Assembly (NCBI GenBank): GCA_964436665.1
Contig: CAYTDY010000003.1
Span: 1-38,458 of the forward strand
Direction of reading: 5' to 3'
From: an uncultured Desulfobacteraceae bacterium
Lineage (GTDB): Bacteria; Desulfobacterota; DSM-4660; Desulfatiglandales; B25-G16
Length of the DNA stretch: 38,458 nt
In this document: positions 3,890 to 34,858 of the stretch, piece after piece
Numbering within the stretch: position 1 is the stretch's first letter
How the letters are laid out: every line of letters starts with the position of its first letter
The notes under the pieces: model-generated
Database searches by the model: none
The model's input: only the letters and a program-made list of their open reading frames with translations
Told to the model about the DNA's origin: nothing
Position numbers and translations under genes: made by a program

Positions 3890-4028
3890 TGTTTATCGTG
3901 CTTGCCCCGTTAAATCTGTCTTTCTATTTAACTGGGGTCTAATATATTATGGAAGATAACTTAGAGTTTCTTTCATGAATAACTCTGAAACTAAGCTTCT
4001 GAGTCAGATGCTAAAGGATATCATAATA

Positions 4029-10917: not shown

Positions 10918-11349
10918 TTACCGAATATTTAAGGATTTTTTATTAGTCATTAAGGTATTATAAATTTTATCCAGTATGCCGTTAATAAATGCCCCTGACT
11001 CCTCGCTACCGAATTTCTTTCCTACATCCACTGCCTCATTAATAGAAACCTTCGGTGGAATATCATCCCTGTATAAAAGCTCGAATACAGCTAATCTTAA
11101 AATAGAGCGGTCAACCCTCGCTATCCTTTCAAATCGCCAATTTTTTGATGCACTACCTATCAAACTATCCAACTCTCTTATATGAGCGCAGACCCCATGG
11201 ACAAGTTCCTTAGAAAAGGGCTTAACATCTTCAGAGGCGTCAAAGTTATTGCAGATTAAATCAAAGGCTATAGCAGGATCATCTTTTGAAAATTCAAGAT
11301 GAAAAAGAACCTTTATTGCCAGTTCCCTCGAGCGCCTTCTCTTTCCCAT
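10918..11349 (-). CDS. nusB: Transcription antitermination factor NusB
   Basis: I chose the first ATG (MGKRRRSRELAIKVLF...). The upstream 18 codons of the track ORF start at TTG and simply translate a GTTTCA/GTTTCC stutter array. The gene follows ribH, as in many bacteria. Confidence 0.85.
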   Translation of the reverse strand: MGKRRRSRELAIKVLFHLEFSKDDPAIAFDLICNNFDASEDVKPFSKELVHGVCAHIRELDSLIGSASKNWRFERIARVDRSILRLAVFELLYRDDIPPKVSINEAVDVGKKFGSEESGAFINGILDKIYNTLMTNKKSLNIR

Positions 11350-11566
11350 GTGCTTTTTGAAACTTGAAACTCGAAATTTGAAACTGGAAACATGTTCTGT
11401 CAACCACTAAACCCGCAACACCTGAAATAAATAAGCAGTGGACAGATTTGCTCTATAATTCCTAAATTCGTTGGAAGATTTCAGCGCTTAACAAACTCTT
11501 AAATTTGCAGGATTCAAAATTGAATCAAGTTTCCAGTTTCCAGTTTCAATTTTCCAGCAAGGTTAT

Positions 11567-12034
11567 CTAATCAAAAACCTTAAACAGATTGACCATCTCC
11601 ATTGCCGAGACAGCAGCATCCCAACCTTTGTTTCCACTCTTTGCGCCAGCCCTTTCAATCGCCTGCTCTAATGTATCAGTGGTTATCACTCCAAATGCAA
11701 CAGGAATCCGGCTTTCAAGAGCAACAGAGGCTATTCCTCTTGATACTTGGTTACTGATGTATTCAAAGTGTGGAGTAGCACCCCTTATTACAACCCCCAG
11801 ACAAATTACACAGTCAAATCGATCGCCTGAAGACAATCTCTTTGCCATGGAAGGGATTTCAAAGGCACCAGGCACCTTAACAATGGTTATTTGATCATCA
11901 GACGCCCCATGCCTTTTTAGGGCATCTAAGGCCCCATCTAATAATCTCTGGCCTATAAAATCATTAAAACGGCTAACGACAATTGCAAATTTAATTCCTT
12001 TTGCTGAAACCTCTCCTTCAATAAGTTTTGGCAT
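11567..12034 (-). CDS. ribH: 6,7-dimethyl-8-ribityllumazine synthase
   Basis: 155 aa. [12 protein letters not shown] and VPGAFEIP are typical lumazine synthase motifs. Confidence 0.92.
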
Positions 12035-12053
12035 GAGTACCCTCCTTATGAAT

Positions 12054-13259
12054 CTACTTATTAATTTCCATAATATGTCCGAGCTTTTCGCATTTAGTTA
12101 AAAGATAACGAATATTCTCAGGTCTTGGAGGGATTTCAATAGGCACTCTGTCCGTGACCGTCAAGTCATAACCCTCAAGACCTACTATTTTCTTTGGATT
12201 GTTGGTCATTATTCTCATCCTTTTAATGCCTAAGGCAACAAGAATCTGAGCACCTACACCATAATCTCTCAAGTCAGCCTCAAAGCCTAGCTTTTTATTT
12301 GCCTCCACTGTATCCAGGCCCTTATCCTGCAACGCATAGGCCTTAAGCTTATTTGCAAAACCTATTCCCCTACCTTCCTGCCTTAAATAGATGACAACTC
12401 CCAGCCCCTCCTGTTCAATCATCTTAAGGGCCTTTTTCAATTGATCTCCACAGTCACATCTGTAGGAACCTAAGACATCCCCTGTTAAACATTCAGAATG
12501 AACCCTAACCAAAATATCTTTGTCCGGGTCGATTTCTCCCTTTATTAAAGCCAGATGCTCACTGTTATCAAGTTCATTTCTAAATGCTATTGCCTTGAAT
12601 TCACCAAACGGGGTTGGCAAAATAGTTTCTGCCTCCTTTTGGACAAAGGACTCATTTCTCATGCGGTAGGCAATTATATCTGCAACAGTAACAACTCTAA
12701 GACCATGTTTTTTGCTAAATCGATCAAGATCAGGTCTTCTGGCCATGGTACCATCATCATTCATTATCTCACAGATAACACCTGCCGGCTTTAGGCCGGC
12801 AAGTCTTGCCATATCTACAGAGCCCTCGGTCTGCCCCGTCCTGAAAAGCACCCCCCCTCTCCTTGCCCTAAGGGGAAATAAATGCCCTGGCTGAACCACG
12901 TCATCAGGTGATGCATCATCTGCCACAGCTGTAAGGATAGTATGTGCCCTATCAGCAGCTGATATACCTGTAGTTACCCCATGCTTTGCCTCTATAGAAA
13001 CAGTAAAGGCAGTCTGAAAATGAGACCGATTATCATGAACCATCAAGGGAAGTTTTAACCTTTCAACTATATCTGCATGGAGGGATAGACAAATCAGGCC
13101 TCTTGCATATTTAGCCATAAAGTTAATAGCCTTGGGAGTGACCTTCTCAGCAGCCATGGTCAAATCGCCCTCGTTCTCCCTGTCCTCATCATCAACAAGG
13201 ATAATCATCTTGCCCTGCCGTAAATCTTCGAGTGCATCCTCTATATTAGAACCGCTCAT
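12054..13259 (-). CDS. ribBA: Bifunctional 3,4-dihydroxy-2-butanone-4-phosphate synthase / GTP cyclohydrolase II
   Basis: Both domains are present: [11 protein letters not shown] for the DHBP synthase and [21 protein letters not shown] for GTP cyclohydrolase II. I prefer the ATG at 13259 because GGAGAAGG lies just upstream. An alternative ATG is at 13277. Confidence 0.9.
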
Positions 13260-15083: not shown

Positions 15084-15232
15084 TGGTCTATTAATAATGG
15101 AATTTATGTTTTTCTGGTAGAAAATTTTTTGATATGTTTTTTTCGAACACTGACAAGTAAATTTAGGAATTGAGGGATTTAGGTATTAAGGAATTCCTTA
15201 ATTTATAATTCCTGAATCCCGGTTAGGCAGTA

Positions 15233-19227: not shown

Positions 19228-19281
19228 TTTTTTCCCTCTGTCATTGAAATGGCATCAATTTCGTTAAAGGCCTTTCTCTTG

Positions 19282-19414
19282 GAGACCTTTGAAAAATTAT
19301 CTTACATGTCATTGCGAGGAGCGAAGCGACGTGGCAATCTTTTATATTTTCAATGAGTTAGAGATTGCTTCACATTCGTTCGCAATGACAGAGCGGCCAT
19401 TTTTCAAAGGTCTC
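19282..19414 (+). mobile_element. 133-bp MITE, family C, copy 1
   Basis: Perfect 16-bp terminal inverted repeats GAGACCTTTGAAAAAT / ATTTTTCAAAGGTCTC. An internal imperfect hairpin pairs GTCATTGCGAGGAGCGAAGCGACGTGGCAATC with GATTGCTTCACATTCGTTCGCAATGAC. It differs at 4 of 133 positions from 29291-29423. The flanks are TCTTG and TCTTA. Confidence 0.8.
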
Positions 19415-19416
19415 TC

Positions 19417-19611
19417 TTAAAATTTAGCCATCCATTGTTCCAGCCTCTCTTGAATATGATTATTGACAAAATCTGTAGCTATTCTAATTGCATTCTTTAT
19501 AGCCTTAGAGGAAAAACCGCCATGACATATAATCCCAACCCCTTTAACCCCTAAAAGAAGAGTTCCTTGAACGATAACTCCGGGGGCATGGTCTCCTCCC
19601 ATTGCATCCAC
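19417..19611 (-). pseudogene. plsX: plsX remnant: in-frame fusion of the PlsX N-terminal and C-terminal motifs with ~240 internal codons missing
   Basis: The 64-codon ORF reads (NLNIAV)DAMGGDHAPGVIVQG, the PlsX N-terminus, joined directly to LLLGVKGVGIICHGGFSSKAIKNAIRIA, the PlsX C-terminal LLG..G..I..HG......NAI..A motif. It sits in the canonical position after yceD-rpmF. Confidence 0.6.
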
Positions 19612-23672: not shown

Positions 23673-24584
23673 TCAAAGCATTGCTGCTTGATAGAGTTCT
23701 CTTGCATGATAAGAGCTCCGCACAAACGGTCCGCTGGCAACTTTAGAAAAACCCATTTTAAGAGCATTCTCCCTCCAGCTATCAAACTCTTCGGGATGTA
23801 TAAAGCGTTCAACCTGTAAGTATTTACGTGTGGGCTGAAGATATTGACCAAGTGTCAGGATGCTGCAGCCTACGTCAAGAAGGTCCTCCAGCGTTTTTTC
23901 AACTTCTTCGGGAAATTCTCCTAATCCGAGCATAAGACCTGACTTTGTGGGAATAGTGGGGTCAAAATTTTTTGCCTTCTTTAGTAATTCAAGTGAGCGA
24001 CTGTACACAGCCTCTGGCCGAACCGAATTATAAAGACGGGGGACGGTTTCAAGATTATGGTTCAAAACATCTGGATGAGCATTTATAACTGCATGAAGAG
24101 CATCTATATTCCCCTGAAAATCCGGTATCAAAATCTCCACAAGGGCTTTGGGCATCCTTTTGCGAATCTCTTTAATTGTTTCTGCAAAAAAACTTGCTCC
24201 TCCATCAGGGAGATCGTCCCGTGTGACAGAGGTGATGACTACATAGCACAACCCCATGCTTTGTGCAGCTTCGGCTACCCTGGCCGGTTCTCCAGGATCT
24301 GGCGAGCCTGGCTGTCTGTGTTCCACTGCGCAGAAACGGCAATTGCGGGTGCAATAAGGCCCCATAATCAGGAATGTTGAAGTCTGATGGGAAAAACACT
24401 CCCAGATGTTGGGACATTTGGCTTCCTCGCACACTGTGTGAAGCCGGCTTTTTTTTAGCAGATTCCTGACTTTTTCATATGTGGTCCCCGTTGGAAAACG
24501 CCGCTTTAGCCAGTGTGGCTTACCGCCCCGCGTTTTCTGTTGGAGGTTATGATTCATGTAGGCGTTCACAGGTTCAGATTTCAC
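23673..24584 (-). CDS. lipA: Lipoyl synthase
   Basis: 303 aa. Has the auxiliary cluster CEEAKCPNIWEC and the radical-SAM cluster CTRNCRFCAV, plus the C-terminal motif RSSY. Confidence 0.95.
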   Translation of the reverse strand: MKSEPVNAYMNHNLQQKTRGGKPHWLKRRFPTGTTYEKVRNLLKKSRLHTVCEEAKCPNIWECFSHQTSTFLIMGPYCTRNCRFCAVEHRQPGSPDPGEPARVAEAAQSMGLCYVVITSVTRDDLPDGGASFFAETIKEIRKRMPKALVEILIPDFQGNIDALHAVINAHPDVLNHNLETVPRLYNSVRPEAVYSRSLELLKKAKNFDPTIPTKSGLMLGLGEFPEEVEKTLEDLLDVGCSILTLGQYLQPTRKYLQVERFIHPEEFDSWRENALKMGFSKVASGPFVRSSYHARELYQAAML

Positions 24585-24703
24585 CGTTCAGGGTTACCTT
24601 TCAAAACTCACGAATTAGCGGTTCAGACCTGCCCGCCGGATGGCAGGCGGGTTTTCGGTGAACCCTGAACCTCTGAACCCGTGAACGGTTGTTGATTCAT
24701 CAA

Positions 24704-25474
24704 TTAAAAATCTTCAATCTTCAATTCCTTCAGGTCTATCATAACAAGCTCAACCCCAAAAATCGCTTTGATGTGATGCTTTACAGTCTCGCGGACTTTG
24801 CTCATGGATACTTTATGTGAGAGTTCCCGCTCAATGGAGGTCATCCCTATATCTTGAAGACCGCAGGGTTTTATCCATCCAAAAGGTTTCAGTGAAAGAC
24901 TGACATTAAATGCAATGCCATGGAAACAAATTCCATGGCGAATCGCTATCCCGATGCTCCCCAGTTTATTGTTGCCGACCCAGACTCCCCTGTTTATGGG
25001 ATTTCGTTCAGCCATTATTCCCTGGTCCGCAGCCGTCCTTATCATAACTTCTTCCAAATTGTCGACATAATCCGTTACCCCTAACCTGGATGTTCTCATG
25101 TCAATGATAGGGTAAACAACAAGCTGTCCTGGTCCGTGAAAGGTAATGTTGCCTCCCCTTTCTACTTGAATCACTGGAATTCCTGCTTTTTCCAGAAAAT
25201 CCTCAGACACAGTTAAATTATTCAACCCGCCCCTGCGGCCAAGAGTGAAAACAGGTAGGTGTTCCAAGAATAAAACAATATCCGTATCAATAATTCGATC
25301 TTTTCTTGCAGCTACAAGACTACATTGCAAATCCCATGCTTTAGCATATTCGATCGTTGATAGTTCTATATAAAGCCATTTTCTATTTCTATGGATAGAT
25401 TTATTATTACAGTACTTCAATGCGGAGTCTTTGTAATTGAATGGTGGAATCCTTCTTTTGTTCTTATGGGACAC
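24704..25474 (-). CDS. lipB: Octanoyl/lipoyl-(ACP):protein transferase
   Basis: 256 aa with EHLPVFTLGRRG, RGGNITFHGPGQLVVYPI and KLGSIGI. The GTG start lies 3 nt after the fdhA-like stop. The ~30-aa N-terminal extension is uncertain. Confidence 0.85.
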   Translation of the reverse strand: MSHKNKRRIPPFNYKDSALKYCNNKSIHRNRKWLYIELSTIEYAKAWDLQCSLVAARKDRIIDTDIVLFLEHLPVFTLGRRGGLNNLTVSEDFLEKAGIPVIQVERGGNITFHGPGQLVVYPIIDMRTSRLGVTDYVDNLEEVMIRTAADQGIMAERNPINRGVWVGNNKLGSIGIAIRHGICFHGIAFNVSLSLKPFGWIKPCGLQDIGMTSIERELSHKVSMSKVRETVKHHIKAIFGVELVMIDLKELKIEDF

Positions 25475-25477
25475 TAA

Positions 25478-27520
25478 TTATGGCTCTACACGCACTGCGC
25501 AAATTTTAAGCTCTGGAATCCCGGATTTAGTATCAAGCTCTTGCATAGTCAAGACGTTTGCCGAGGCCTCTGCAAAATGGATAGGGATGAAGAGTATATT
25601 TCGAGGAATAGTCTCCTTTATATGAGCTTTTACGTTTATGAAACCCCGTCTGGACTGTACCTTGATGATTTGCCCTTCTTGCACCCCAAGAAGAGACGCA
25701 TCTCGAGGGTTGATTTCAATATAGGCTTCATCCAACAGTGCTTGAAGGGTAGGAGACCGCCTCGTCATAGTACCAGTATGGAAGTGAAACAGAGTCCGAC
25801 CTGTTATCAAAACCATGGGATAATGTTTATCAGGTACCTCTGGTGGTGGATTATAATGTACAGGCACTAAAAGTCCTTTTCCGCGCGAAAACTGCTTCTC
25901 ATGAAGAAACTGTGTACCAGGATGACCCACCTCAGGACAAGGCCATTGAATTCCATTATCTCCCAAACAATTGTAGGACATTCCCCTGTAAATGGGTGTA
26001 ACTTGTGAAATTTCGCGGAAAACCTCCTCTGATGTTCTCCAATTCATCCCGTTGTAGCCCATACGACGGGATAGTTCCCCTATGGCTTGCCACTCTTGCT
26101 TGGCTCTTCCCAAAGGCTTAATGGCTTTATGAACCATTTGTACGCGCCGCTCTGTCGAAGTGAAGGTTCCATCTTTTTCGGCAAAGCTAACCCCAGGGAG
26201 GACTACATGAGCAAATGAAGCAGTTTCATTTAGAAAAATATCATGAACAACAAGTAAATCCAGCTGTTCTAACGCCTGAGAAATCTGTAGTGAATTTGGC
26301 ATTGAAAGAGCAGGGTTTTCTCCCATAATATACATCCAATGGATCTTCCCATTTAGAATCCCATTAAACATTTCGCACATGGTAACCCCAACTTCTCGTG
26401 GTAGCTGAGTTGTTGACCAAGTTTTCTGGAAAAACTTGTGAATAGAGGGATCGCTCACCCCCTGGTATCCAGGGAATACATCAGGAAGACACCCCACATC
26501 GCAAGTGCCCTGAACATTGTTTTGTCCTCTCAGAGGGTTCACACCAGTAGATCGCCGCCCGACGTTTCCCGTGATTAGCGCCAGATTAGTCAAGGCCAAC
26601 ACCGTGTCCGTTCCGGTAGCATGCTGAGTGACTCCCATGCCATACACTATGGATACCCTTTTGGCGTGGCCAAGAAGGCGAGCGGCCTTGACAATTTCTT
26701 TAGGCGGGACCCCAGTAATCTTTGATACACTTTCAGGAGTATAATCGATAATACTTTTTGCCAAGTCATCAAATCCCTCTACACGCTTTATGATGAAGTC
26801 CCGGTCTTCCATCCGCTCCTTTAGAATTATATGAATGAAGCCATTGATCAAAGCAATGTCGCTACCAGGATAAGGCTGGAGATACATATGACTGCATCCC
26901 GCTAAATCAATCCGGCGAGGATCAATTAAGATCAAAGTGCGATCCTTGTCCAGAATAGCCCTCAAAATTCTCCGACTGATGAGAGGATGCTGTTCAGTAG
27001 TGTTGGAGCCTATAATTAATAACACGTCCGCATCTTCCAGCTCCTCTATGCTATTAGTCATAGCCCCGCTGCCGAACGCAGTTGTCAGGCCGGTCATTGT
27101 GGAAGCGTGGCAAAGCCGGGCACAATTATCGATGTTAGACGTCTTCGCTACAGCTCTCCCAAACTTTTGAAGTGCGTAGTTATCCTCATTCGAGCACTTG
27201 GCTGATCCTATAAGACTTACGGCATGCGGACCATGCTTTTCCAAGACATGCAATAAACTCCTTCTAATCCAGTTTAAGGCTTCGTCCCAGCTGACAGTTC
27301 GGAAGGGCTGGGATCGGTCCTCTCTCAATAATGGTTGCTTCAACCTGTCATTATGTTCAATGAACTCATGAGCGCTCCATCCCTTGATGCAAAGCTTTCC
27401 CTGATTGACCCCTTTATCGCTGGGGTATACTCCTTCAATATGATGTTGATCATTCACTCTAAGAACTATGCGGCAGCCTACACCACAGAATGGGCAAATT
27501 GTTTCCACATCTTTGAACAT
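25478..27520 (-). CDS. fdhA: Formate dehydrogenase catalytic (alpha) subunit, FdhF/FdhH-like, cytoplasmic, Cys-type molybdo/tungstopterin enzyme
   Basis: 680 aa, colinear with E. coli FdhF as I recall it. It has the N-terminal CPFCGVGCRI...C 4Fe-4S motif, CARLCHAS (Cys-His where Sec-His sits in FdhF CARVUHGP) and the conserved VNPLRGQNNVQG Arg. There is no twin-arginine signal and no in-frame TGA. AAGGAA lies 7 nt upstream of the ATG. Confidence 0.85.
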   Translation of the reverse strand: MFKDVETICPFCGVGCRIVLRVNDQHHIEGVYPSDKGVNQGKLCIKGWSAHEFIEHNDRLKQPLLREDRSQPFRTVSWDEALNWIRRSLLHVLEKHGPHAVSLIGSAKCSNEDNYALQKFGRAVAKTSNIDNCARLCHASTMTGLTTAFGSGAMTNSIEELEDADVLLIIGSNTTEQHPLISRRILRAILDKDRTLILIDPRRIDLAGCSHMYLQPYPGSDIALINGFIHIILKERMEDRDFIIKRVEGFDDLAKSIIDYTPESVSKITGVPPKEIVKAARLLGHAKRVSIVYGMGVTQHATGTDTVLALTNLALITGNVGRRSTGVNPLRGQNNVQGTCDVGCLPDVFPGYQGVSDPSIHKFFQKTWSTTQLPREVGVTMCEMFNGILNGKIHWMYIMGENPALSMPNSLQISQALEQLDLLVVHDIFLNETASFAHVVLPGVSFAEKDGTFTSTERRVQMVHKAIKPLGRAKQEWQAIGELSRRMGYNGMNWRTSEEVFREISQVTPIYRGMSYNCLGDNGIQWPCPEVGHPGTQFLHEKQFSRGKGLLVPVHYNPPPEVPDKHYPMVLITGRTLFHFHTGTMTRRSPTLQALLDEAYIEINPRDASLLGVQEGQIIKVQSRRGFINVKAHIKETIPRNILFIPIHFAEASANVLTMQELDTKSGIPELKICAVRVEP

Positions 27521-27530
27521 TTCAAGTTCC

Positions 27531-28424
27531 TTATCGAAATTTTGAGGCTAAAGTTTTTTGACCTTCTTTGATCTTGTGCTTCTTGAAGCCAATGTCATCT
27601 AAACTCCATCCCATAGCAAGAGCCAGGAGTTCCAGAAAGTGAAATACAGGAAGCTGAACGTCGGTAATGCGCTTCCGAAAGGCCATCACCTGCCCAATCT
27701 CGAATTGTTGAAAGCAAAATGCACATGCTACAGACAATGCCTCAGCACCATATCGCTTCATATCTTCAACTTTTTTCTTCACCACAGTCAGAGAATCATC
27801 TAATGCTCCGGCTAAAGTCAGTGGAGCTCCACAACATATAGACTTTTCCCGGTAATCAACAACGCAGGCCCCCATTGCATCGAGAATCTTATCCGCCTTA
27901 ACAGGGCTAAAAGGATTGTCAAACTGCAAGATGGCTTTGGGGCTGCTTTCGTGGCATCCACTATGACAAGCAATTTTCAATTCGGCGAGCGGCCGCCTAA
28001 CTTCATCGCTGAGCCTCTTTAGGCCCACATCCTCATAGATCACCCTCAAAAAGTGCTTTACTGTAACCGGCCCATTGATATTATGGCCAACCTCTTCAAG
28101 CACCTGGTTTACTTTTCGGGCTAACATAGGCCGTTCCTGTAATTCCTGATTTGCCGTGGAAAGGGTAAATGTACAAGTGGGGCACAAAGTCAAGATAGGT
28201 AAACCAAGCCTCTGAGCGATAGATAAATTCCTGGCAGCGAGAGCTAACCACGTAAAGCGGTCCGCGGCCCCGAAACGCACAGGGTCTGGGCAGCAAGTAA
28301 AGCCTTCTGCATCTACTAACTCGATTCCTAATTGTGCTAGCGTCTTGCGAGCCAAGTATTCAAATTGGGGAAAACGGGTGGGAATCAAACATCCTAAAAA
28401 AAGCACGTATCTGATTGGTATCAT
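27531..28424 (-). CDS. hdrB: Heterodisulfide reductase subunit B-like protein (two CCG domains)
   Basis: The ATG at 28424 is preceded by AGGAGAGG, whereas the track ORF starts 20 codons earlier. FLGC...TCCPDP...CPTC and CHSGCH...ICCGAP...CAFC form two CCG domains, colinear with methanogen HdrB (TW.A.AARN, V.V.HF, DVGL, PV.H...LL.LAMG). Confidence 0.82.
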   Translation of the reverse strand: MIPIRYVLFLGCLIPTRFPQFEYLARKTLAQLGIELVDAEGFTCCPDPVRFGAADRFTWLALAARNLSIAQRLGLPILTLCPTCTFTLSTANQELQERPMLARKVNQVLEEVGHNINGPVTVKHFLRVIYEDVGLKRLSDEVRRPLAELKIACHSGCHESSPKAILQFDNPFSPVKADKILDAMGACVVDYREKSICCGAPLTLAGALDDSLTVVKKKVEDMKRYGAEALSVACAFCFQQFEIGQVMAFRKRITDVQLPVFHFLELLALAMGWSLDDIGFKKHKIKEGQKTLASKFR

Positions 28425-28509
28425 CTCTACCTCTCCTGAGTAACTTAATATGTAAAAGAGCATGAAGATATCTTTTTTTACCATGCCCTCACAATGACAA
28501 GTCGGTAGG

Positions 28510-28585
28510 CCGCTTCAAACCAGCGCACACGGACAAAGGCCCTAGAAGACAATGACGAGTTGCTTGTGCGCAGGGTTTGAAGCGG
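28510..28585. repeat. Long hairpin in the hdrC-hdrB spacer
   Basis: CCGCTTCAAACC (28510-28521) pairs perfectly with GGTTTGAAGCGG (28574-28585). GCGCAC/GTGCGC extends the stem to about 18 bp, with a 37-nt loop. Confidence 0.6.
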
Positions 28586-28737
28586 CACGCTGAGGCCCCC
28601 TATTAGAGGGCATGATGTGAAAAAAGACACCTCCATGCTCAATTTAACGTTTCTTTCATGAATAACCCGGAAGCGAAGCGCCGAGGTCATTTTCTGAGTA
28701 ATTATTTAGTTTTGTTCATGGCACTACTGGTGCTCTC

Positions 28738-29244
28738 TTATAGATACCGAATAACTGTAGAACTGGATCGGAGATTTTCTAACTTCTCTAGTAGTCCCGT
28801 GCGTTTTGCAATGCGCTGGATGTCCTCAACAGCCTCAAACTTGAATGCTGATAACCCTAGATTTTCACGTTCTTTGATAGCCTTTTGTGTTACTGGAAAA
28901 GACATCCCAGTTGAAAGCACCATCTCCACGAGTTTGTAAACAAAACTAGGCGCGTATCCTTCTTCTAATGAACGTTCTTGGAAGCTAGCAACCACACGGG
29001 CGAGATCTACATCTTGCGGGCATGATTCAGAGCATTTGTGGCATGCAGAGCAACACCATAGAGATAACTGTGCTTGAGGTTTATCTGATCGCAAAAGCTC
29101 ATAAAAAAAGGTTCGAGAATTGTCATATGCTTTTAAATGTTGAACCACGCAATGTAAGCTGCAAACACTGCATTCAAAGCAAAGATGTTGCAAAGTCAAA
29201 AATCCGTAATTCCGGTCCCGACCTATGTAATCAATCTGGATCAT
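28738..29244 (-). CDS. hdrC: Heterodisulfide reductase subunit C-like ferredoxin (2x[4Fe-4S])
   Basis: 168 aa. It has CFECSVCSLHC(V) and CCSACHKCSESCP motifs at HdrC-like spacing, and the C-terminal half is colinear with methanogen HdrC (TG...P......E.R...GL). Confidence 0.72.
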   Translation of the reverse strand: MIQIDYIGRDRNYGFLTLQHLCFECSVCSLHCVVQHLKAYDNSRTFFYELLRSDKPQAQLSLWCCSACHKCSESCPQDVDLARVVASFQERSLEEGYAPSFVYKLVEMVLSTGMSFPVTQKAIKERENLGLSAFKFEAVEDIQRIAKRTGLLEKLENLRSSSTVIRYL

Positions 29245-29290
29245 AGAAATAATTTTTTAGGGCATTAACCCAAAGCTTAGGATATATTTC

Positions 29291-29423
29291 GAGACCTTTG
29301 AAAAATTATCTTACAAGTCATTGCGAGGAACGAAGCGACGTGGCAATCTTTTATATTTTCAATGAGTTAGAGATTGCTTCACATTCATTCGCAATGACAG
29401 AGCGGCCATTTTTCAACGGTCTC
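29291..29423 (+). mobile_element. 133-bp MITE, family C, copy 2
   Basis: 129 of 133 positions are identical to 19282-19414. The terminal inverted repeats are GAGACCTTTGAAAAAT / ATTTTTCAACGGTCTC, flanked by a direct 5-bp duplication ATTTC | ATTTC. Confidence 0.85.
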
Positions 29424-29583
29424 ATTTCATATTCCTATCTTCTTAAGGAGATATTTATGTTGATTATCGTTCATATTATCAACTTTTCCATCAAGCAAAG
29501 TATCTTTTTTGTAACTTCACTCCGCATAGAGCATGGCGCATAGCAAATAACTCTCCGCGCTTTGCCCTTTGTGCTTTGCGCTT

Positions 29584-31041
29584 TCAGCCTGCAAGACATG
29601 GTTTCCGAGCCGCTGTTGTCTCATCCAGCCTTTTTACCTTGCAGATTTTTGGTGCTTCATGCAGCAGGTCCGGCTCTTCCATTGCCTCTTTTACAATGGC
29701 TTTGAATGCTTCAATGTATTGATCGAGGTCATCTTTTGACTCTGTCTCAGTTGGTTCGAACATGATCGCACCCTGTACTACCAACGGAAAATAAACGGTG
29801 GGCGGATGAAATCCGTAATCCATAAGTCGTTTTACCATTTCCAGGGTTGTAACCTTATAGGCCATTTGATATTTATCGGAAAAAACGCATTCATGCATAC
29901 ACGGTCTGTCATAGGCAAGATGTAATGTATCCTTTAACATTTCCTTGACATAATTTGCATTCAAGACAGCAAGCTGGCTGGCCTTTTTCAGATTTTTTGG
30001 CCCCATGCTACGAAGATAACTGTAAGCCTTTATCATGACCCCAAAATTTCCATGAAATGCTGAAATCTTGCCTATGGATTCAGGATAATTTTCAGCAAGA
30101 ATAAATCTGCCATTCTCCTGGATCACGCGCGGAACAGGCAGAAATGGCTCAAGATGCCTTTTGACACATACAGGACCTGAACCGGGACCTCCTCCCCCGT
30201 GGGGAGTCGAAAAGGTCTTATGGAGGTTAAGATGCATGATGTCAACCCCGATTTTGCCCATTTGTACAATACCCATAGCTGCATTCATGTTTGCACCGTC
30301 ACAATACACCAGCCCTCCTTTGGAGTGGACGATTTCGGCTATTTTTTGGATGTTTTCTTCAAAAAGACCAAGTGTGTTGGGGTTGGTTACCATAATTCCG
30401 GCTGTATCATCGTCCATGACATCAGCAATGGCCTCCGCAGAAAGTATCCCCTGTTCGTTGGATCTTACAGACACCGGACTGTAACCGCAGAGGGCCGCAC
30501 TGGCAGGGTTTGTCCCGTGAGCAGTATCCGGAATAATTATTTTTGAACGCCGCACCCCTTTGCTTTTATTAAAGGCATAAATAAGAAGCATTCCGGTAAG
30601 CTCTCCATGGGCCCCTGCTGCAGGCTGAAGGGTGGTTGCGTCCATACCCGTGATTTCAGCAAGATATTGCTCAAATTCAAACATAATCTTGAGAGCTCCC
30701 TGAGATAGATTGGCCGGAAGCAGGGGATGGGCCCAGCTAAATCCCGGAAGGCCTGCCTGCTTTTCATTTGTCTTCGGACTGTACTTCATGGTGCATGAAC
30801 CTAACGGGTACATACCAGAATCCACTCCGAAATTCCACTGGGACAGCCTGGTGTAATGACGTACCACATCAACCTCACTCAGATCCGGAAAGTCAGGGCC
30901 TTCGAATGTAAGGTCCTCATCCAAGGGGCAGGATTCAACGTCACGCCGGGGAATGGAAAATCCGCATCTTCCCTTTTTCCCCTTTTCCCAAAGTAGCGGT
31001 TCATTTAATATAAGGCCTGTAGTACCTAAAGATTCTTTCAT
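29584..31041 (-). CDS. gcvPB: Glycine dehydrogenase (aminomethyl-transferring) subunit 2
   Basis: 485 aa. HLNLHKTFSTPHGGGGPG carries the PLP-lysine motif. Confidence 0.95.
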   Translation of the reverse strand: MKESLGTTGLILNEPLLWEKGKKGRCGFSIPRRDVESCPLDEDLTFEGPDFPDLSEVDVVRHYTRLSQWNFGVDSGMYPLGSCTMKYSPKTNEKQAGLPGFSWAHPLLPANLSQGALKIMFEFEQYLAEITGMDATTLQPAAGAHGELTGMLLIYAFNKSKGVRRSKIIIPDTAHGTNPASAALCGYSPVSVRSNEQGILSAEAIADVMDDDTAGIMVTNPNTLGLFEENIQKIAEIVHSKGGLVYCDGANMNAAMGIVQMGKIGVDIMHLNLHKTFSTPHGGGGPGSGPVCVKRHLEPFLPVPRVIQENGRFILAENYPESIGKISAFHGNFGVMIKAYSYLRSMGPKNLKKASQLAVLNANYVKEMLKDTLHLAYDRPCMHECVFSDKYQMAYKVTTLEMVKRLMDYGFHPPTVYFPLVVQGAIMFEPTETESKDDLDQYIEAFKAIVKEAMEEPDLLHEAPKICKVKRLDETTAARKPCLAG

Positions 31042-31088
31042 GATTTAACCTCTCTATTAATTTGGTAATTTGGGAATTCCCCAATCCC

Positions 31089-32420
31089 TCAATTCCTCAA
31101 TTTGCTTACTAATTCATCCATTTCCTCCATGGACTTGGTTTCCGTTACACACAAAAGATAATGGTTGGCAAGTTCAGGATAATAGGGAGCCAGAGAAAGG
31201 CCTGCTATTATCTTTGTCTCCAGAAGGCGCTTGTAGTTGACCTCAAAGTCTGGAGGGAATTCCACCACGAATTCATTGAATGTGGGCCTGTCAAAGCTTA
31301 TTTTAAATCCCGCCTTTTTTAGTTCTTTTTTAAGATACTCGGCCTTATCATGGTTAAGACGGGCAAGTTCCCGTATCCCGGTACCTCCTACAGAGGCCAT
31401 ATACATTGCAGCCGCCAGAGCACAGAGGCTATTGTTGGTGCAAATGTTTGAAGTCGCCTTTTCCCTGCGAATATGCTGCTCCCTGGTAGCAAGCGTAAGA
31501 ACAAAGCCTCTTTTTCCATCCAGATCTTTTGTTTGGCCAATCAAGCGACCAGGTAAGTTGCGCATATATTCCTTTCTGCTTGCGAGGATCCCAAGTGCCG
31601 GTCCACCAAAGGTCTGGGGAATACCCAGACTCTGACCTTCTCCGCACACAATGTCAGCGCCTTGACTCCCGGGATTTTTAAGGAGCCCGTAAGCAAGTGC
31701 TTCTGTAAAGGAAGAGATGAAAAGGGCCTTTTTAGCATGAGCCTTTTCCCCAATGGCCTGTAGTTCTTCAATGCATCCTAAAAAATTTGGCGACTGAACC
31801 GCAACTGCTGCAAGGTCATCCATTTCATCAAGCCCTGTAAAATCGGTCATACCATTTTTAAGATAGTTAAGTTCCAAAACTTCATAACCGGTGGGATTAA
31901 AATAGGTTTGAACCACTCGACGATATAGAGGATGAATCAGACTTGAAATGGCGACTTTTCGCCTCTTTGTTACACGAACGGCCATAAGCAGTGATTCGGC
32001 CAGGGCTGTGGCACCATCATAATGCGATGCGGTTGCTATTTCCATACCCAGTAGCCTGGCAACAAGCGTCTGATACTCATAAATCGCCTGGAGTGTTCCC
32101 TGGCTCATTTCCGGCTGGTAGGGAGTATACGATGTTACAAACTCGGAGCGACCTAAAAGGTACGATACCGACGCAGGAATAAAATGTTCATAACTACCTG
32201 CTCCCATGAACACTTTATAATCCGGGGAGACGGCCATGCTACTGGAAATAGAGGCCATATGGTCATTCAATTCCCACTCGCTCAATGCCTCAGGCAGATT
32301 GAGATTGTCCCTTAAACGGCAATTCTCAGGGACGGTTGAGAAAAGACCGTCAAGGTCATCAACCCCCACAACCTTAAGCATTGAAGCAATTTCTTCACTG
32401 GTATGAGGCAAGTAAAGCAT
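31089..32420 (-). CDS. gcvPA: Glycine dehydrogenase (aminomethyl-transferring) subunit 1
   Basis: 443 aa with TSYTPYQPEMSQGTLQAIYEYQT. The start abuts the gcvH stop as TAAATG. Confidence 0.95.
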   Translation of the reverse strand: MLYLPHTSEEIASMLKVVGVDDLDGLFSTVPENCRLRDNLNLPEALSEWELNDHMASISSSMAVSPDYKVFMGAGSYEHFIPASVSYLLGRSEFVTSYTPYQPEMSQGTLQAIYEYQTLVARLLGMEIATASHYDGATALAESLLMAVRVTKRRKVAISSLIHPLYRRVVQTYFNPTGYEVLELNYLKNGMTDFTGLDEMDDLAAVAVQSPNFLGCIEELQAIGEKAHAKKALFISSFTEALAYGLLKNPGSQGADIVCGEGQSLGIPQTFGGPALGILASRKEYMRNLPGRLIGQTKDLDGKRGFVLTLATREQHIRREKATSNICTNNSLCALAAAMYMASVGGTGIRELARLNHDKAEYLKKELKKAGFKISFDRPTFNEFVVEFPPDFEVNYKRLLETKIIAGLSLAPYYPELANHYLLCVTETKSMEEMDELVSKLRN

Positions 32421-32825
32421 TTAATCTGCTCCTTTCAGTTTTTCAAGACACTCGGCATTGGTCATCAGGTCGTCCATCTCAGATGGATCGCTGGGATTGA
32501 CATCAACAAACCATCCATCGTTGTATGGATTTTTGTTCACAAGTTCAGGCGATTCTTCAAGGGCGGTGTTTACAGCAATAATTTCTCCGCCGACCGGCAA
32601 GTAACATTCCACAACCGCTTTTACTGATTCCACAGTTGCGAATTCTTTCCCCTTTTCAAAGGTATCACCTATCTGGGGCAGCTCCACGAAAACAATGTCT
32701 CCAAGCTGATCCTGGGCATAGTCATCAAGGCCGACCCTGATCCTATCGCCCTCAAGCCTGGCCCATTCATGATCTTCTGCATAGCGAATATCACCGGGTA
32801 AATTTAATTCATTGATTTCTTTCAT
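32421..32825 (-). CDS. gcvH: Glycine cleavage system H protein (lipoyl carrier)
   Basis: 134 aa. Has the lipoyl-lysine motif VESVKAV and an ATGA overlap with gcvT. Confidence 0.95.
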   Translation of the reverse strand: MKEINELNLPGDIRYAEDHEWARLEGDRIRVGLDDYAQDQLGDIVFVELPQIGDTFEKGKEFATVESVKAVVECYLPVGGEIIAVNTALEESPELVNKNPYNDGWFVDVNPSDPSEMDDLMTNAECLEKLKGAD

Positions 32826-34117
32826 AATCTCTTCTCCTTTTGCTCTATTATCTCCTCAATGGGACATAGTGCTGTACGATCAGGACGAATGTCACTCACA
32901 ATCATGACCTTTATTTTTCGCCTTTCATCTTTGAGTTCCACTACTTGCCCGGGATCCAGCTTGGACTTCACCTTTACAAAGCCGCAGCTCAATCCATGGG
33001 GTTTGAAATTTTCCGGTTTATCGGGGCTTGAAATGCTGTAAATCCGGTCTCCATGACGCCCAATTCCTATATCACAAACACAGGTAAGAACCAAACCTAT
33101 TTTATTGCCCTCAGAATCCAATACAATAGTCTGATCACAGACGGAAACCTTACGGAGGTCATAGCCTGTGAAGGCATAGGTGTATTCTGGTTTGTCTATA
33201 TCCTTAAGGGCTTCGTTTCCTATAAACTTTTTGGTAAAGTCTGTTCCGTCAGGATTGAAAGGCAGGGCAAAAGGCCACGGGTGATTGATGAATGGCCATG
33301 GACCGATATCCTGATGGGACAGGGGAAGGACCGCACTGGCCCTGAGAGAATCCCTGACCGCTAAGCCGCAGGGCAAAAGACCAAAATCTTGCCCTGCGTC
33401 AAAAATCATTTCCCAGACCTTGACGAGATGAAACTGGTCTACGAAAATTTCAAAGCCAAATTCCCCGGTATAGCCCGTTCGTGAAAGCAGAAGCGGCGTA
33501 CCGTCAATCAATCGTACCTTATCGGCAAGTGGAGATGCTTCATCAAAATGGCCCTTGAACGTAAAGTATAGCATGTCTTTAAAAACTTCTTCGTGATCTA
33601 CCAGAATTTTCATAAGGATCCTGGCGGCCATTGGACCCTGGATGTCCATTTTACCTATTTTATCCGTAAGGTCGTTAATTTCAACATTTCGCCTATCCCT
33701 GTAAGCCATCAGATGCCGTGCTACTTCACCGCCTAAGCCGGCGTTTACGACAGTCATGTAAGTGTTATGCTCCAACTGGTACAAGATTGCGTCATCAATG
33801 ACTTTGCCTGATTCATTAAGAAAGGCACCATAAACACATCTGCCAGGTACCAAAGGTGATTTGTCTTTCCCCACGCAGGCATACAGGTCTTTGGTAAGGC
33901 AGAGCTGGAGCAGTTCAAAAGCGTCAGGGCCTATAACCATGACCAGAGCCATATGGCTTGTATCGAAAATGCCAGCCTTTGTAAGAACCGCCAGATGTTC
34001 CTTTTTTGCACCTGCAGGATACCAGAGCGGCATTTCGTATTCTCCGAAACTGACCATATTGGCCCCATGGGCCACATGCCAATCATATAAAGGAGTCTTC
34101 TTCGTTTCCTTTTGCAT
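32822..34117 (-). CDS. gcvT: Glycine cleavage system T protein (aminomethyltransferase), long form
   Basis: 431 aa with TPLYDWHVAHGANMVSFGEYEMPLWYP and GIFDTSHM. The C-terminus is about 60 aa longer than in typical GcvT. Confidence 0.9.
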   Translation of the reverse strand: MQKETKKTPLYDWHVAHGANMVSFGEYEMPLWYPAGAKKEHLAVLTKAGIFDTSHMALVMVIGPDAFELLQLCLTKDLYACVGKDKSPLVPGRCVYGAFLNESGKVIDDAILYQLEHNTYMTVVNAGLGGEVARHLMAYRDRRNVEINDLTDKIGKMDIQGPMAARILMKILVDHEEVFKDMLYFTFKGHFDEASPLADKVRLIDGTPLLLSRTGYTGEFGFEIFVDQFHLVKVWEMIFDAGQDFGLLPCGLAVRDSLRASAVLPLSHQDIGPWPFINHPWPFALPFNPDGTDFTKKFIGNEALKDIDKPEYTYAFTGYDLRKVSVCDQTIVLDSEGNKIGLVLTCVCDIGIGRHGDRIYSISSPDKPENFKPHGLSCGFVKVKSKLDPGQVVELKDERRKIKVMIVSDIRPDRTALCPIEEIIEQKEKRL

Positions 34118-34248
34118 GGTTTATTCCTTCAATTAATGCCACTTCTCTGCAATTGCGAATTTCAGAATTCAGGAATTGCGAATGGAAATAAAGGATTTTA
34201 TCTTTTTTTAATCAATAATATTCCTAAATCCCGCGATTCCTCAATTCC

Positions 34249-34692
34249 TTAAAGTATATAAGGGACCTTCAAGTTGTAGCCCTTGTAAATCACGAAGCTC
34301 TCCACGGACCGAATGTCCTTTAACCGATACACCTCCTCTGTGTAAAATTCCAACAAGTTAAACCCTTCCTTTAAAAGGACCACCAGCATTAGATCATATC
34401 GGCCTGTTACAACGCTTGCAGACACCACCCCCTTTAACTTGCTGAATTCCTCAGCTTTTTTGACCAGATTCAAGGTATTTAATTTAACGCCGACCATGAC
34501 CACCCTGTGCCCAGAAATGGCTTCCGGGTCCACGAGTCCAGAGATCTCCAGAATTCCTTTGTTTAATAATTTGTTGACCCGCGCTCTCACCGTGTTTTCG
34601 GAAATACCCAGTTCATCGGCAATCATTTTGAAGGATTTTCTTCCATCTCTAAGGTGCCTAATAATTGTGATGGTGGTTTCGTCTATGTTCAT
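34249..34692 (-). CDS. Lrp/AsnC family transcriptional regulator
   Basis: MNIDETTITIIRHLRDGRKSFKMIADELGISENTVRARVNKLLNKGIL is the HTH, followed by a RAM-type C-domain. I chose the start at 34692 from typical family length. An alternative ATG is at 34725. Confidence 0.85.
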   Translation of the reverse strand: MNIDETTITIIRHLRDGRKSFKMIADELGISENTVRARVNKLLNKGILEISGLVDPEAISGHRVVMVGVKLNTLNLVKKAEEFSKLKGVVSASVVTGRYDLMLVVLLKEGFNLLEFYTEEVYRLKDIRSVESFVIYKGYNLKVPYIL

Positions 34693-34858
34693 ATTAAATA
34701 TACCCCCGCTTAATATTGGCGACATCAATAATCGAATCAGTCAGGATATCAAGATGCCTCAACTTTTGGACGATACCTAAATATTATTAAATTATATTTT
34801 TTAATTATGCTTTTCATTCCTCAACTTTTTTCCAACGATAGTAGACAATAAGATAATA

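Follow-up and report, generated by a model that had tools for sequence, protein, structure and literature searches.

A conserved hdrC-hdrB-fdhA trio linked to lipoate and GcvH genes in Desulfobacterota: a candidate formate:disulfide oxidoreductase

The methanogen thiol:fumarate reductase TfrAB is a non-bifurcating enzyme in which an HdrBC-type subunit, TfrB, is wired to one catalytic subunit without HdrA. In the sHdr-LbpA system of sulfur oxidation, known from Hyphomicrobium denitrificans and others, an Hdr-type enzyme with CCG domains and Fe-S clusters is tied to a lipoate-binding protein of the GcvH family and to lipoate-maturation genes (PMC6067878, PMC10332631), and a further paper ties a dihydrolipoamide dehydrogenase gene to some archaeal sHdr clusters (PMC4175335). 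For a cluster in Culexarchaeia that encodes an Ehe hydrogenase, HdrBC and GcvH, it has been speculated in print that GcvH carries the disulfide handled by a non-methanogen HdrB (PMC9723716). Here we describe three adjoining genes, hdrC-hdrB-fdhA (the trio), that lie in a block of glycine cleavage and lipoate genes on contig CAYTDY010000003.1 (assembly GCA_964436665.1) of an uncultured Desulfobacteraceae bacterium; the whole stretch analysed, 38,458 bp, is called the window. Judged from sequence comparisons, the trio would encode a soluble, non-bifurcating formate:disulfide oxidoreductase whose physiological disulfide is the lipoyl group of GcvH, a proposal that we regard as evenly poised between right and wrong.

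The block consists of ten co-directional minus-strand open reading frames (ORFs; 23673-34728), identified from their coordinates and Pfam and NCBIfam assignments as lrp, a gcvT-like gene, gcvH, gcvPA, gcvPB, hdrC, hdrB, fdhA, lipB and lipA (Table 1). The gcvT-like gene and gcvH overlap by 4 nt, the gcvH stop and gcvPA start abut, and gcvPA and gcvPB are 47 nt apart; between hdrB and fdhA there are 10 nt, with a TAAGGA overlapping the hdrB stop, and between fdhA and lipB only 3 nt. The first-pass annotation of this DNA had reported the same ten-gene order and the same junctions, among them an ATGA-type overlap and a Shine-Dalgarno sequence lying over the hdrB stop, and the coordinates and family assignments agree with it on both. 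It was also right that these 38 kb contain no dihydrolipoyl dehydrogenase (Lpd, the L-protein): neither the ORF identities nor a tblastn search of the window with a bona fide Lpd (from locus L001, described below) revealed one, a result that holds for the contig, which the window covers entirely, and says nothing about the remaining genome.

When 5.8 billion protein clusters were searched with the HdrB sequence, only about 25 clusters were found at 44 % identity or more, and below that level the matches are generic HdrB proteins of at most 42 % identity. Clusters above the threshold whose source is named come from metagenome-assembled genomes (MAGs) of Deltaproteobacteria/Thermodesulfobacteriota (Desulfobacterota), together with one Atribacterota MAG. 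Every sufficiently long locus with an HdrB at least 44 % identical (about 18 distinct loci) has the order hdrC-hdrB-fdhA with overlapping or near-abutting genes; 13 loci with a more distant HdrB (at most 41 % identity) have hdrC-hdrB without fdhA, and in these generic controls no gcvH, lipA, lipB or lpd was found. By this comparison hdrC-hdrB-fdhA is a discrete, rare and conserved module.

In four deep lineages, whose HdrB proteins are 58-67 % identical among themselves, the trio is linked to lipoyl genes, and three different gene orders occur. In the window the order is gcvT-H-PA-PB, trio, lipB-lipA, and in MAG AB_3033_Bin_88 (locus L014) it is nadB, gcvT-H-PA-PB, lipA, trio. The Desulfarculaceae JdFR-97 locus (L001, equal to L011 and L022) reads DUF169, lpdA, trio (with a selenocysteine FdhA), tauE, gcvH, a membrane protein gene, lipB, lipA and an FAD oxidoreductase gene, and L004 reads trio, lipB, lipA and the same FAD oxidoreductase gene as in L001. 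Among these four loci lipA is present in all, lipB and gcvH in three each, and gcvT and gcvP in two, so that the common denominator is lipoate and not glycine cleavage itself. The central idea of the first-pass annotation, that this Hdr-type trio belongs with lipoyl-GcvH, has come through a comparative test that it could have failed, with four lineages in three orders on one side and 13 generic hdrCB loci devoid of such genes on the other.

A neighbour-joining tree of HdrB plus FdhA rooted with Atribacterota, a simple distance tree that calls for cautious reading, places the four linked lineages basally and all lipoate-unlinked loci in one derived clade. Loci of this clade (type B: L007, L009, L037 and L045) contain a thrC-like pyridoxal-phosphate enzyme gene, DUF3795, a PF09818 ABC-type ATPase gene that ends about 20 nt before hdrC, the trio, and a gene for a conserved protein of ~90 aa with three transmembrane segments. 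In the Atribacterota locus the trio is preceded by a hydrolase gene and followed by an FMN reductase gene. Neither context suggests a substrate, and the trio evidently works as a stand-alone unit whose partner may be encoded elsewhere or may be a different one. The small ORFs after fdhA in type-B loci were considered as hidden lipoyl carriers and rejected, their products being the membrane proteins just mentioned; a 313-aa ORF after fdhA in L014 has no family match and an odd composition and is probably not a gene. The gene upstream of gcvT in L014 had been a candidate for a TfrA-like flavoprotein coupled to HdrCB, which was discarded when its product proved to be NadB (755 bits, cut-off 629). 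We note in passing that type-B loci carry purU, encoding a formyl-tetrahydrofolate deformylase and hence a formate source, ~6 kb downstream of the trio.

The trio could accordingly be read as a formate:disulfide oxidoreductase for some other couple, such as a small thiol, DsrC or thioredoxin, its proximity to gcv and lip genes then reflecting co-regulation of formate, C1 and glycine metabolism or an ancestral arrangement. No lipoate genes lie near the trio in the derived clade or the Atribacterota locus, which make up most of the trio loci sampled (the derived clade is often sampled, but from closely syntenic genomes); the trio is moreover self-contained and mobile between contexts, and the changes at HdrB active-site contacts described below do not identify lipoyl. 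Such an alternative has to accommodate a trio kept beside lipA, lipB or gcvH in three gene orders and generic hdrCB loci that show no lipoate linkage, and in L001 a trio surrounded by lpdA, gcvH, lipB and lipA though gcvT and gcvP are missing, which again makes lipoate, not glycine, the shared element. We consider it rather unlikely.

The lpdA gene of JdFR-97 ends 22 nt upstream of hdrC, and its product is a genuine dihydrolipoyl dehydrogenase (526 bits with TIGR01350, cut-off 409). To our knowledge the only known substrates of this enzyme are protein-bound lipoyl groups, and the position of lpdA, as far as gene neighbourhood can tell, speaks for lipoyl as the substrate. The same gene in part contradicts the suggestion in the first-pass annotation that the trio would replace the L-protein, which is not borne out in a cluster that encodes both. 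In the cultured relative Syntrophus gentianae, lpd is divergent from a gcvT-H-PA-PB-lipB-lipA operon that has no trio; its Lpd is 59 % identical to that of L001, and its T-like, H, PA, PB, LipB and LipA proteins are 57-73 % identical to those of the window and are encoded in the same order. The window is therefore the S. gentianae operon into which the trio has been inserted, after gcvPB and ahead of lipB, and where S. gentianae has lpd the window has lrp and a gene for a GcvT-SHMT (serine hydroxymethyltransferase) fusion.

These arrangements raise the alternative that the L-protein is kept and that GcvH serves as a lipoyl shuttle between FdhA-HdrCB and an Lpd encoded elsewhere, which would give a formate:NAD+ link or provide GcvH with two alternative redox partners. 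It draws on the tight lpdA-hdrC-hdrB-fdhA operon found together with gcvH in Desulfarculaceae JdFR-97, on the gcv-adjacent lpd of S. gentianae, which indicates that the lineage normally uses Lpd, and on the description of archaeal sHdr clusters that are also flanked by dihydrolipoamide dehydrogenase genes (PMC4175335). We think it unlikely, in that no lpd is found on this contig, nor at L004 or L014 less than 10 kb from the trio, and leading electrons from formate to NADH by way of three proteins and a carrier seems a detour when NAD-linked formate dehydrogenases exist. The opposite view, that FdhA-HdrCB is an NAD-independent substitute for the L-protein through which the glycine cleavage system exchanges electrons directly with formate/CO2, is possible, although on the doubtful side. 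If it is true, glycine synthesis gains about 20-25 kJ/mol over NADH, or syntrophs can vent electrons from glycine as formate.

HdrB can be aligned over its full length with methanogen HdrB structures (~40 % identity, E 1e-66) and has two CCG motifs with all ten cluster cysteines, which are invariant in the clade alignment; its start codon is confirmed by the metagenomic relative L016 and by a database gene call. The HdrC-like protein matches only HdrC chains in the PDB (E about 1e-11), with an NCBIfam score of 60 against a cut-off of 160. The best PDB match of FdhA is 9t1s_L, which is the alpha subunit of Fdh in a methanogen Fdh-Hdr structure (E 1e-207), followed by FdhF of HDCR and by 7bkb_D. 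Its Molybdop_Fe4S4 domain occupies residues 4-55 (Pfam), and because this domain begins at residue 4 there is no room for a signal peptide or export signal. The motifs CARL[C/U]HAST (CARL-C-HAST in the window) and NPLRGQNNVQG, which supply the catalytic selenocysteine/cysteine (Sec/Cys)-His pair and the Arg, are conserved. The catalytic codon is TGC in the window and an in-frame TGA, for selenocysteine, in L001, where fdhA (10920-12959) had been split by the gene caller into two genes of 135 and 539 aa; this is the sole TGA, and 16 of 16 other trio loci have TGC or TGT. Interchange of Sec and Cys is typical of genuine formate dehydrogenases.

No electron-transfer partner for FdhA of the FdhB, HycB/HydN or NuoEF-like kinds was found in the window or in the trio operons, and the adjoining place is held by HdrC. 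An HdrA-like gene is likewise lacking in the window and inside every trio operon, and the window has no MvhD or FdhB; because these three are missing there, the trio is not the bifurcating enzyme of the methanogen type. The CCG domain also occurs in enzymes without a disulfide substrate, and matches to SdhE (E 1e-34), GlpC, GlcF and LdhH were obtained too, so that HdrCB might be a mere Fe-S wiring or docking module (compare type-E succinate dehydrogenase, GlpC, GlcF and LutA) that hands electrons from formate to an acceptor other than a disulfide or provides low-potential electrons for the radical-SAM enzyme LipA, whose gene is the single one linked to the trio at all four lipoate-linked (type-A) loci. 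This seems very improbable to us: with full-length identity of ~40 % and ten conserved cluster cysteines HdrB is much closer to true HdrB than to SdhE or GlpC, a Mo/W enzyme complex of 1,100 residues would be out of scale for serving a cofactor synthase, and gcvH and lpdA cluster with the trio as well.

The residues of HdrB that hold coenzyme M (CoM) and coenzyme B (CoB) in PDB 5ODR are the backbone NH groups of Gly46 and Gly198 together with Arg201, Arg14, Arg240 and Phe233 (2026 structure-activity paper, PMC13261682). These contacts were mapped onto 26 HdrB sequences of the trio clade and 91 other non-methanogen HdrB sequences. Arg14 is an arginine in 22 of the 26 and in 83 of the 91, and is the only contact retained across the trio clade. 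Gly46 is Val in the clade and is also lost in the others (mostly Phe); Gly198 is deleted or Leu, depending on the alignment, and is lost in the others too (an alignment gap); Arg240 is Ile or Thr and elsewhere mostly Met or Leu. Two losses are specific to the clade, namely Arg201, replaced by Thr or Ser (Arg or Lys in 79 of the 91 others), and in most members Phe233, which is mostly Ser (Phe in 72 of the 91), the window keeping the Phe. The pocket of trio-clade HdrB is not built for CoM-S-S-CoB, as expected in bacteria, and the clade-specific loss of one further anion-binding arginine would fit an uncharged aliphatic arm without proving one. As a guide to the substrate these contacts were set aside as weakly discriminating, the losses being mostly found in other non-methanogen HdrB proteins also.

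While the gene identities, cofactor motifs, conserved trio and repeated linkage to lipoate and GcvH genes are read directly from the genomes, we infer that the three proteins form a complex, what they act on, in which direction they work and whether they stand in for Lpd. An electron wire from FdhA through HdrC to HdrB is plausible because no HdrA or FdhB accompanies the trio. Formate would be oxidized at the Mo/W centre of FdhA, and electrons would pass from the FdhA [4Fe-4S] cluster through two [4Fe-4S] clusters of HdrC to two non-cubane clusters of HdrB, which would reduce lipoyl-GcvH to dihydrolipoyl-GcvH; the chances that lipoyl-GcvH is indeed the substrate of HdrB are, on these comparisons, about balanced. 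On this contig dihydrolipoyl-GcvH would then feed the P- and T-proteins acting as a glycine synthase, with the net reaction formate + NH3 + methylene-tetrahydrofolate (CH2-THF) -> glycine + THF, the CO2 released by FdhA being consumed by the P-protein, and glycine could be turned into serine by the neighbouring GcvT-SHMT fusion. With CO2/formate at about -0.43 V and lipoamide at about -0.29 V the transfer is exergonic by about 26 kJ/mol, and NADH at -0.32 V offers lipoamide reduction only about 6 kJ/mol. Lowering formate to micromolar levels shifts the CO2/formate couple up towards -0.3 V, and at such very low concentrations the chain might be reversed, with glycine-derived electrons leaving as formate in a syntroph. 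On thermodynamic grounds only, the formate-oxidizing direction is mildly favoured.

Several considerations weigh against assigning the trio to lipoyl-GcvH. The evidence is gene context only, and a single ancestral arrangement may be common to the four linked lineages, with the unlinked loci in the majority. Most losses of CoM/CoB contacts are common to other non-methanogen HdrB proteins and give no specific pointer to lipoyl. Lipoamide is ~150 mV more negative than CoM-S-S-CoB, and the HdrB clusters would therefore need a lower working potential. Finally, two repeat or miniature inverted-repeat transposable element (MITE) insertions now lie between gcvPB and hdrC and between hdrC and hdrB in the window, where they could interrupt co-transcription.

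These insertions occupy the two large spacers of the block. The 339-nt gcvPB-hdrC spacer holds a 146-nt intergenic repeat that carries a 'GTCATTGCGAA...GAAGCAATC' motif and is present in two direct copies, with partial inverted copies at the contig end (38279-38456). The ~260-nt element between hdrC and hdrB has a 39-nt piece in common with positions 3958-3996; in an alignment it is missing from L016, whose proteins are 93-95 % identical and whose hdrC-hdrB spacer is ~55 nt. Because it is bounded by TTACTCAG direct repeats and is absent from L016, we take the element to be a MITE-type insertion. Both large spacers are recent repeat or MITE insertions, and the ancestral block was therefore compact, as that of L014 still is. 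A short AT-rich motif (ATTCC..AATCCC..ATTCCTCAATT) is seen in the gcvPA-gcvPB spacer (31068-31102) and the lrp-gcvT spacer (34220-34254), with an inverted copy between ribD and nrdR (15155-15207); a regulator might act there, or the motif may be one more small repeat. No glycine riboswitch or other known RNA was found upstream of gcv, the one RNA detected being a tRNA, and scans for consensus promoters and terminators across the block gave matches no more frequent than in shuffled sequence. The other gene-like long ORFs of the window are housekeeping genes: a riboflavin operon, leuS, nusB, murJ, holA, lptE, hisB, fabF/G, rpiB and nrdR.

Table 1. Genes of the block and other features of the window, with their coordinates
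Feature	Position	Strand	Assignment or remark
Lrp/AsnC-family regulator, first gene of block	34249-34728	-	Pfam AsnC_trans_reg and HTH_AsnC-type
GcvT-like aminomethyltransferase, 431-aa variant	32822-34117	-	Pfam GCV_T, 198 bits
GcvH, canonical lipoyl-carrier H-protein	32421-32825	-	NF002270, 162 bits (cut-off 117); TIGR00527, 148 bits (cut-off 116)
GcvPA	31089-32420	-	NF001696, 598 bits (cut-off 364)
GcvPB	29584-31041	-	NF003346, 692 bits (cut-off 441)
HdrC-like subunit	28738-29244	-	two CX2CX2CX3C motifs; TIGR03290 E 2e-16, below cut-off
HdrB	27531-28424	-	Pfam CCG x2; TIGR03288 E 1e-77
FdhA, cytoplasmic Mo/W formate dehydrogenase catalytic subunit, Cys type	25478-27520	-	TIGR01591, 796 bits (cut-off 666)
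LipB octanoyl/lipoyl transferase	24704-25474	-	TIGR00214, 157 bits (cut-off 84)
LipA lipoyl synthase	23673-24584	-	TIGR00510, 409 bits (cut-off 310)
GcvT-SHMT fusion, 883/884 aa	35452-38106	+	Pfam GCV_T, GCV_T_C and SHMT; divergent from lrp
146-nt dispersed repeat in gcvPB-hdrC spacer	29288-29433		94 % identical to 19279-19424
MITE-like insertion, ~260 nt, between hdrC and hdrB	28435-28701; about 28430-28690 in the alignment with L016		flanking TTACTCAG direct repeats, target-site-like

Of the glycine cleavage proteins of the block, the P-protein is split into PA and PB, both over their NCBIfam cut-offs, and the carrier is typed as GcvH, the 'not_gcvH' model scoring only 71 against a cut-off of 144. 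The 431-aa GcvT-like protein stays below the cut-off of every NCBIfam GcvT model (221 against 300), and no GCV_T_C domain was detected in it. A variant of this kind, ~425 aa long, is common in Desulfobacterota and adjoins gcvH and gcvP in S. gentianae and a Syntrophales MAG; Desulfonema magnum has it on its own, beside a Peptidase_M49 gene and without gcvH or gcvP. A full GcvT is present in the GcvT-SHMT fusion, where it passes NCBIfam (309 bits, cut-off 300), joined to a divergent SHMT domain that scores 239 bits, under the cut-off of 335. The fusion has more than 100 protein clusters at 78-91 % identity, of which those with a named source come mostly from Desulfobacterales(-type) MAGs and are annotated simply as GcvT. 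It is probably part of the same glycine/serine C1 node, in which it may channel CH2-THF between glycine cleavage or synthesis and serine formation. With regard to the reductive glycine pathway, the contig encodes the glycine cleavage core, the SHMT-domain fusion and FdhA; Fhs and FolD are not on the contig.

Two further proteins were observed beside genes of these kinds. The FAD oxidoreductase whose gene follows lipA in L001 (17019-18182) and L004 (14680-15843) is a ThiO/SoxB/MTOX-like protein of 387 aa, 66 % identical between the two loci, and may act as a dehydrogenase of the glycine or sarcosine type that belongs to this node. In locus L042, from a Syntrophales MAG, positions 1-2402 encode a GlcD-like FAD oxidase fused to an Fe-S and CCG (HdrD/TfrB-like) module, directly upstream of gcvT-H-PA-PB, a further instance of a CCG-domain protein adjoining a gcv operon.

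The first-pass annotation took this arrangement to be, as far as is known, undescribed, and a full-text literature search, which was not exhaustive, is in keeping with that: it turned up neither an account of an HdrCB-FdhA module nor one of formate-linked reduction of lipoyl-GcvH. Hdr goes unmentioned in a recent survey of the Desulfobacterota reductive glycine pathway, where the L-protein figures only as one of the standard parts of the cleavage system. This pathway is the leading design for assimilating formate and CO2 synthetically; with NADH, its glycine-synthase step lies close to equilibrium and requires high CO2. If our proposal is true, the H-protein would be charged directly from formate (about -0.43 V) by a natural enzyme, a new and stronger driver of this step and a part for engineering; a defined substrate would be assigned to one among the many orphan Hdr-like proteins of bacteria; and the HdrB of the trio would be the first for which action on a protein-bound lipoyl disulfide is shown in carbon metabolism, to which it would extend a link between Hdr and lipoate that has so far been known from sulfur oxidation only. 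The proposed system is readily testable, comprising only four soluble proteins plus LipB and LipA.

Among the known systems, the canonical NAD-dependent glycine cleavage system of S. gentianae has T-like, H, PA, PB, LipB and LipA proteins orthologous to those of the window and in the same order; the window differs in the trio between gcvPB and lipB and in having no adjacent lpd. The trio shares with the methanogen FdhAB-MvhD-HdrABC complex (PDB 7BKB, 9T1S) an FdhA, an HdrB and an HdrC of the same families and, as proposed here, formate as the reductant for an HdrB-catalysed disulfide reduction. Unlike that complex it has no HdrA, MvhD or FdhB, hence neither flavin-based bifurcation nor F420, and its FdhA would dock directly on HdrC; its host is bacterial, most CoM/CoB contacts are not conserved, and the proposed substrate is a protein-bound cyclic disulfide. 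TfrAB resembles it in combining an HdrBC-type module with a single catalytic subunit, and TfrB was also matched in the NCBIfam search, but there a fumarate-reductase flavoprotein is the catalytic partner, CoM and CoB serve as the thiols, and HdrB is fused to HdrC. The Culexarchaeia cluster is archaeal and membrane-bound, with a [NiFe] hydrogenase and without formate dehydrogenase or linkage to gcvT, gcvP or lipBA. With sHdr-LbpA the window has in common the tie between an Hdr-type enzyme, a GcvH-family carrier and lipoate-maturation genes. Membership of the sHdr family was rejected on gene content and carrier type: the window has a single hdrC-hdrB pair, with no hdrA, hyp, second hdrC2B2 or DsrE/TusA; maturation relies on ordinary LipB and LipA, not sLpl(AB) or LipS1/S2 (score of 22 for LipS2, cut-off 270); a canonical GcvH takes the place of LbpA as the carrier; and the partner enzyme is a formate dehydrogenase, in a setting of glycine and C1 metabolism instead of sulfur oxidation.

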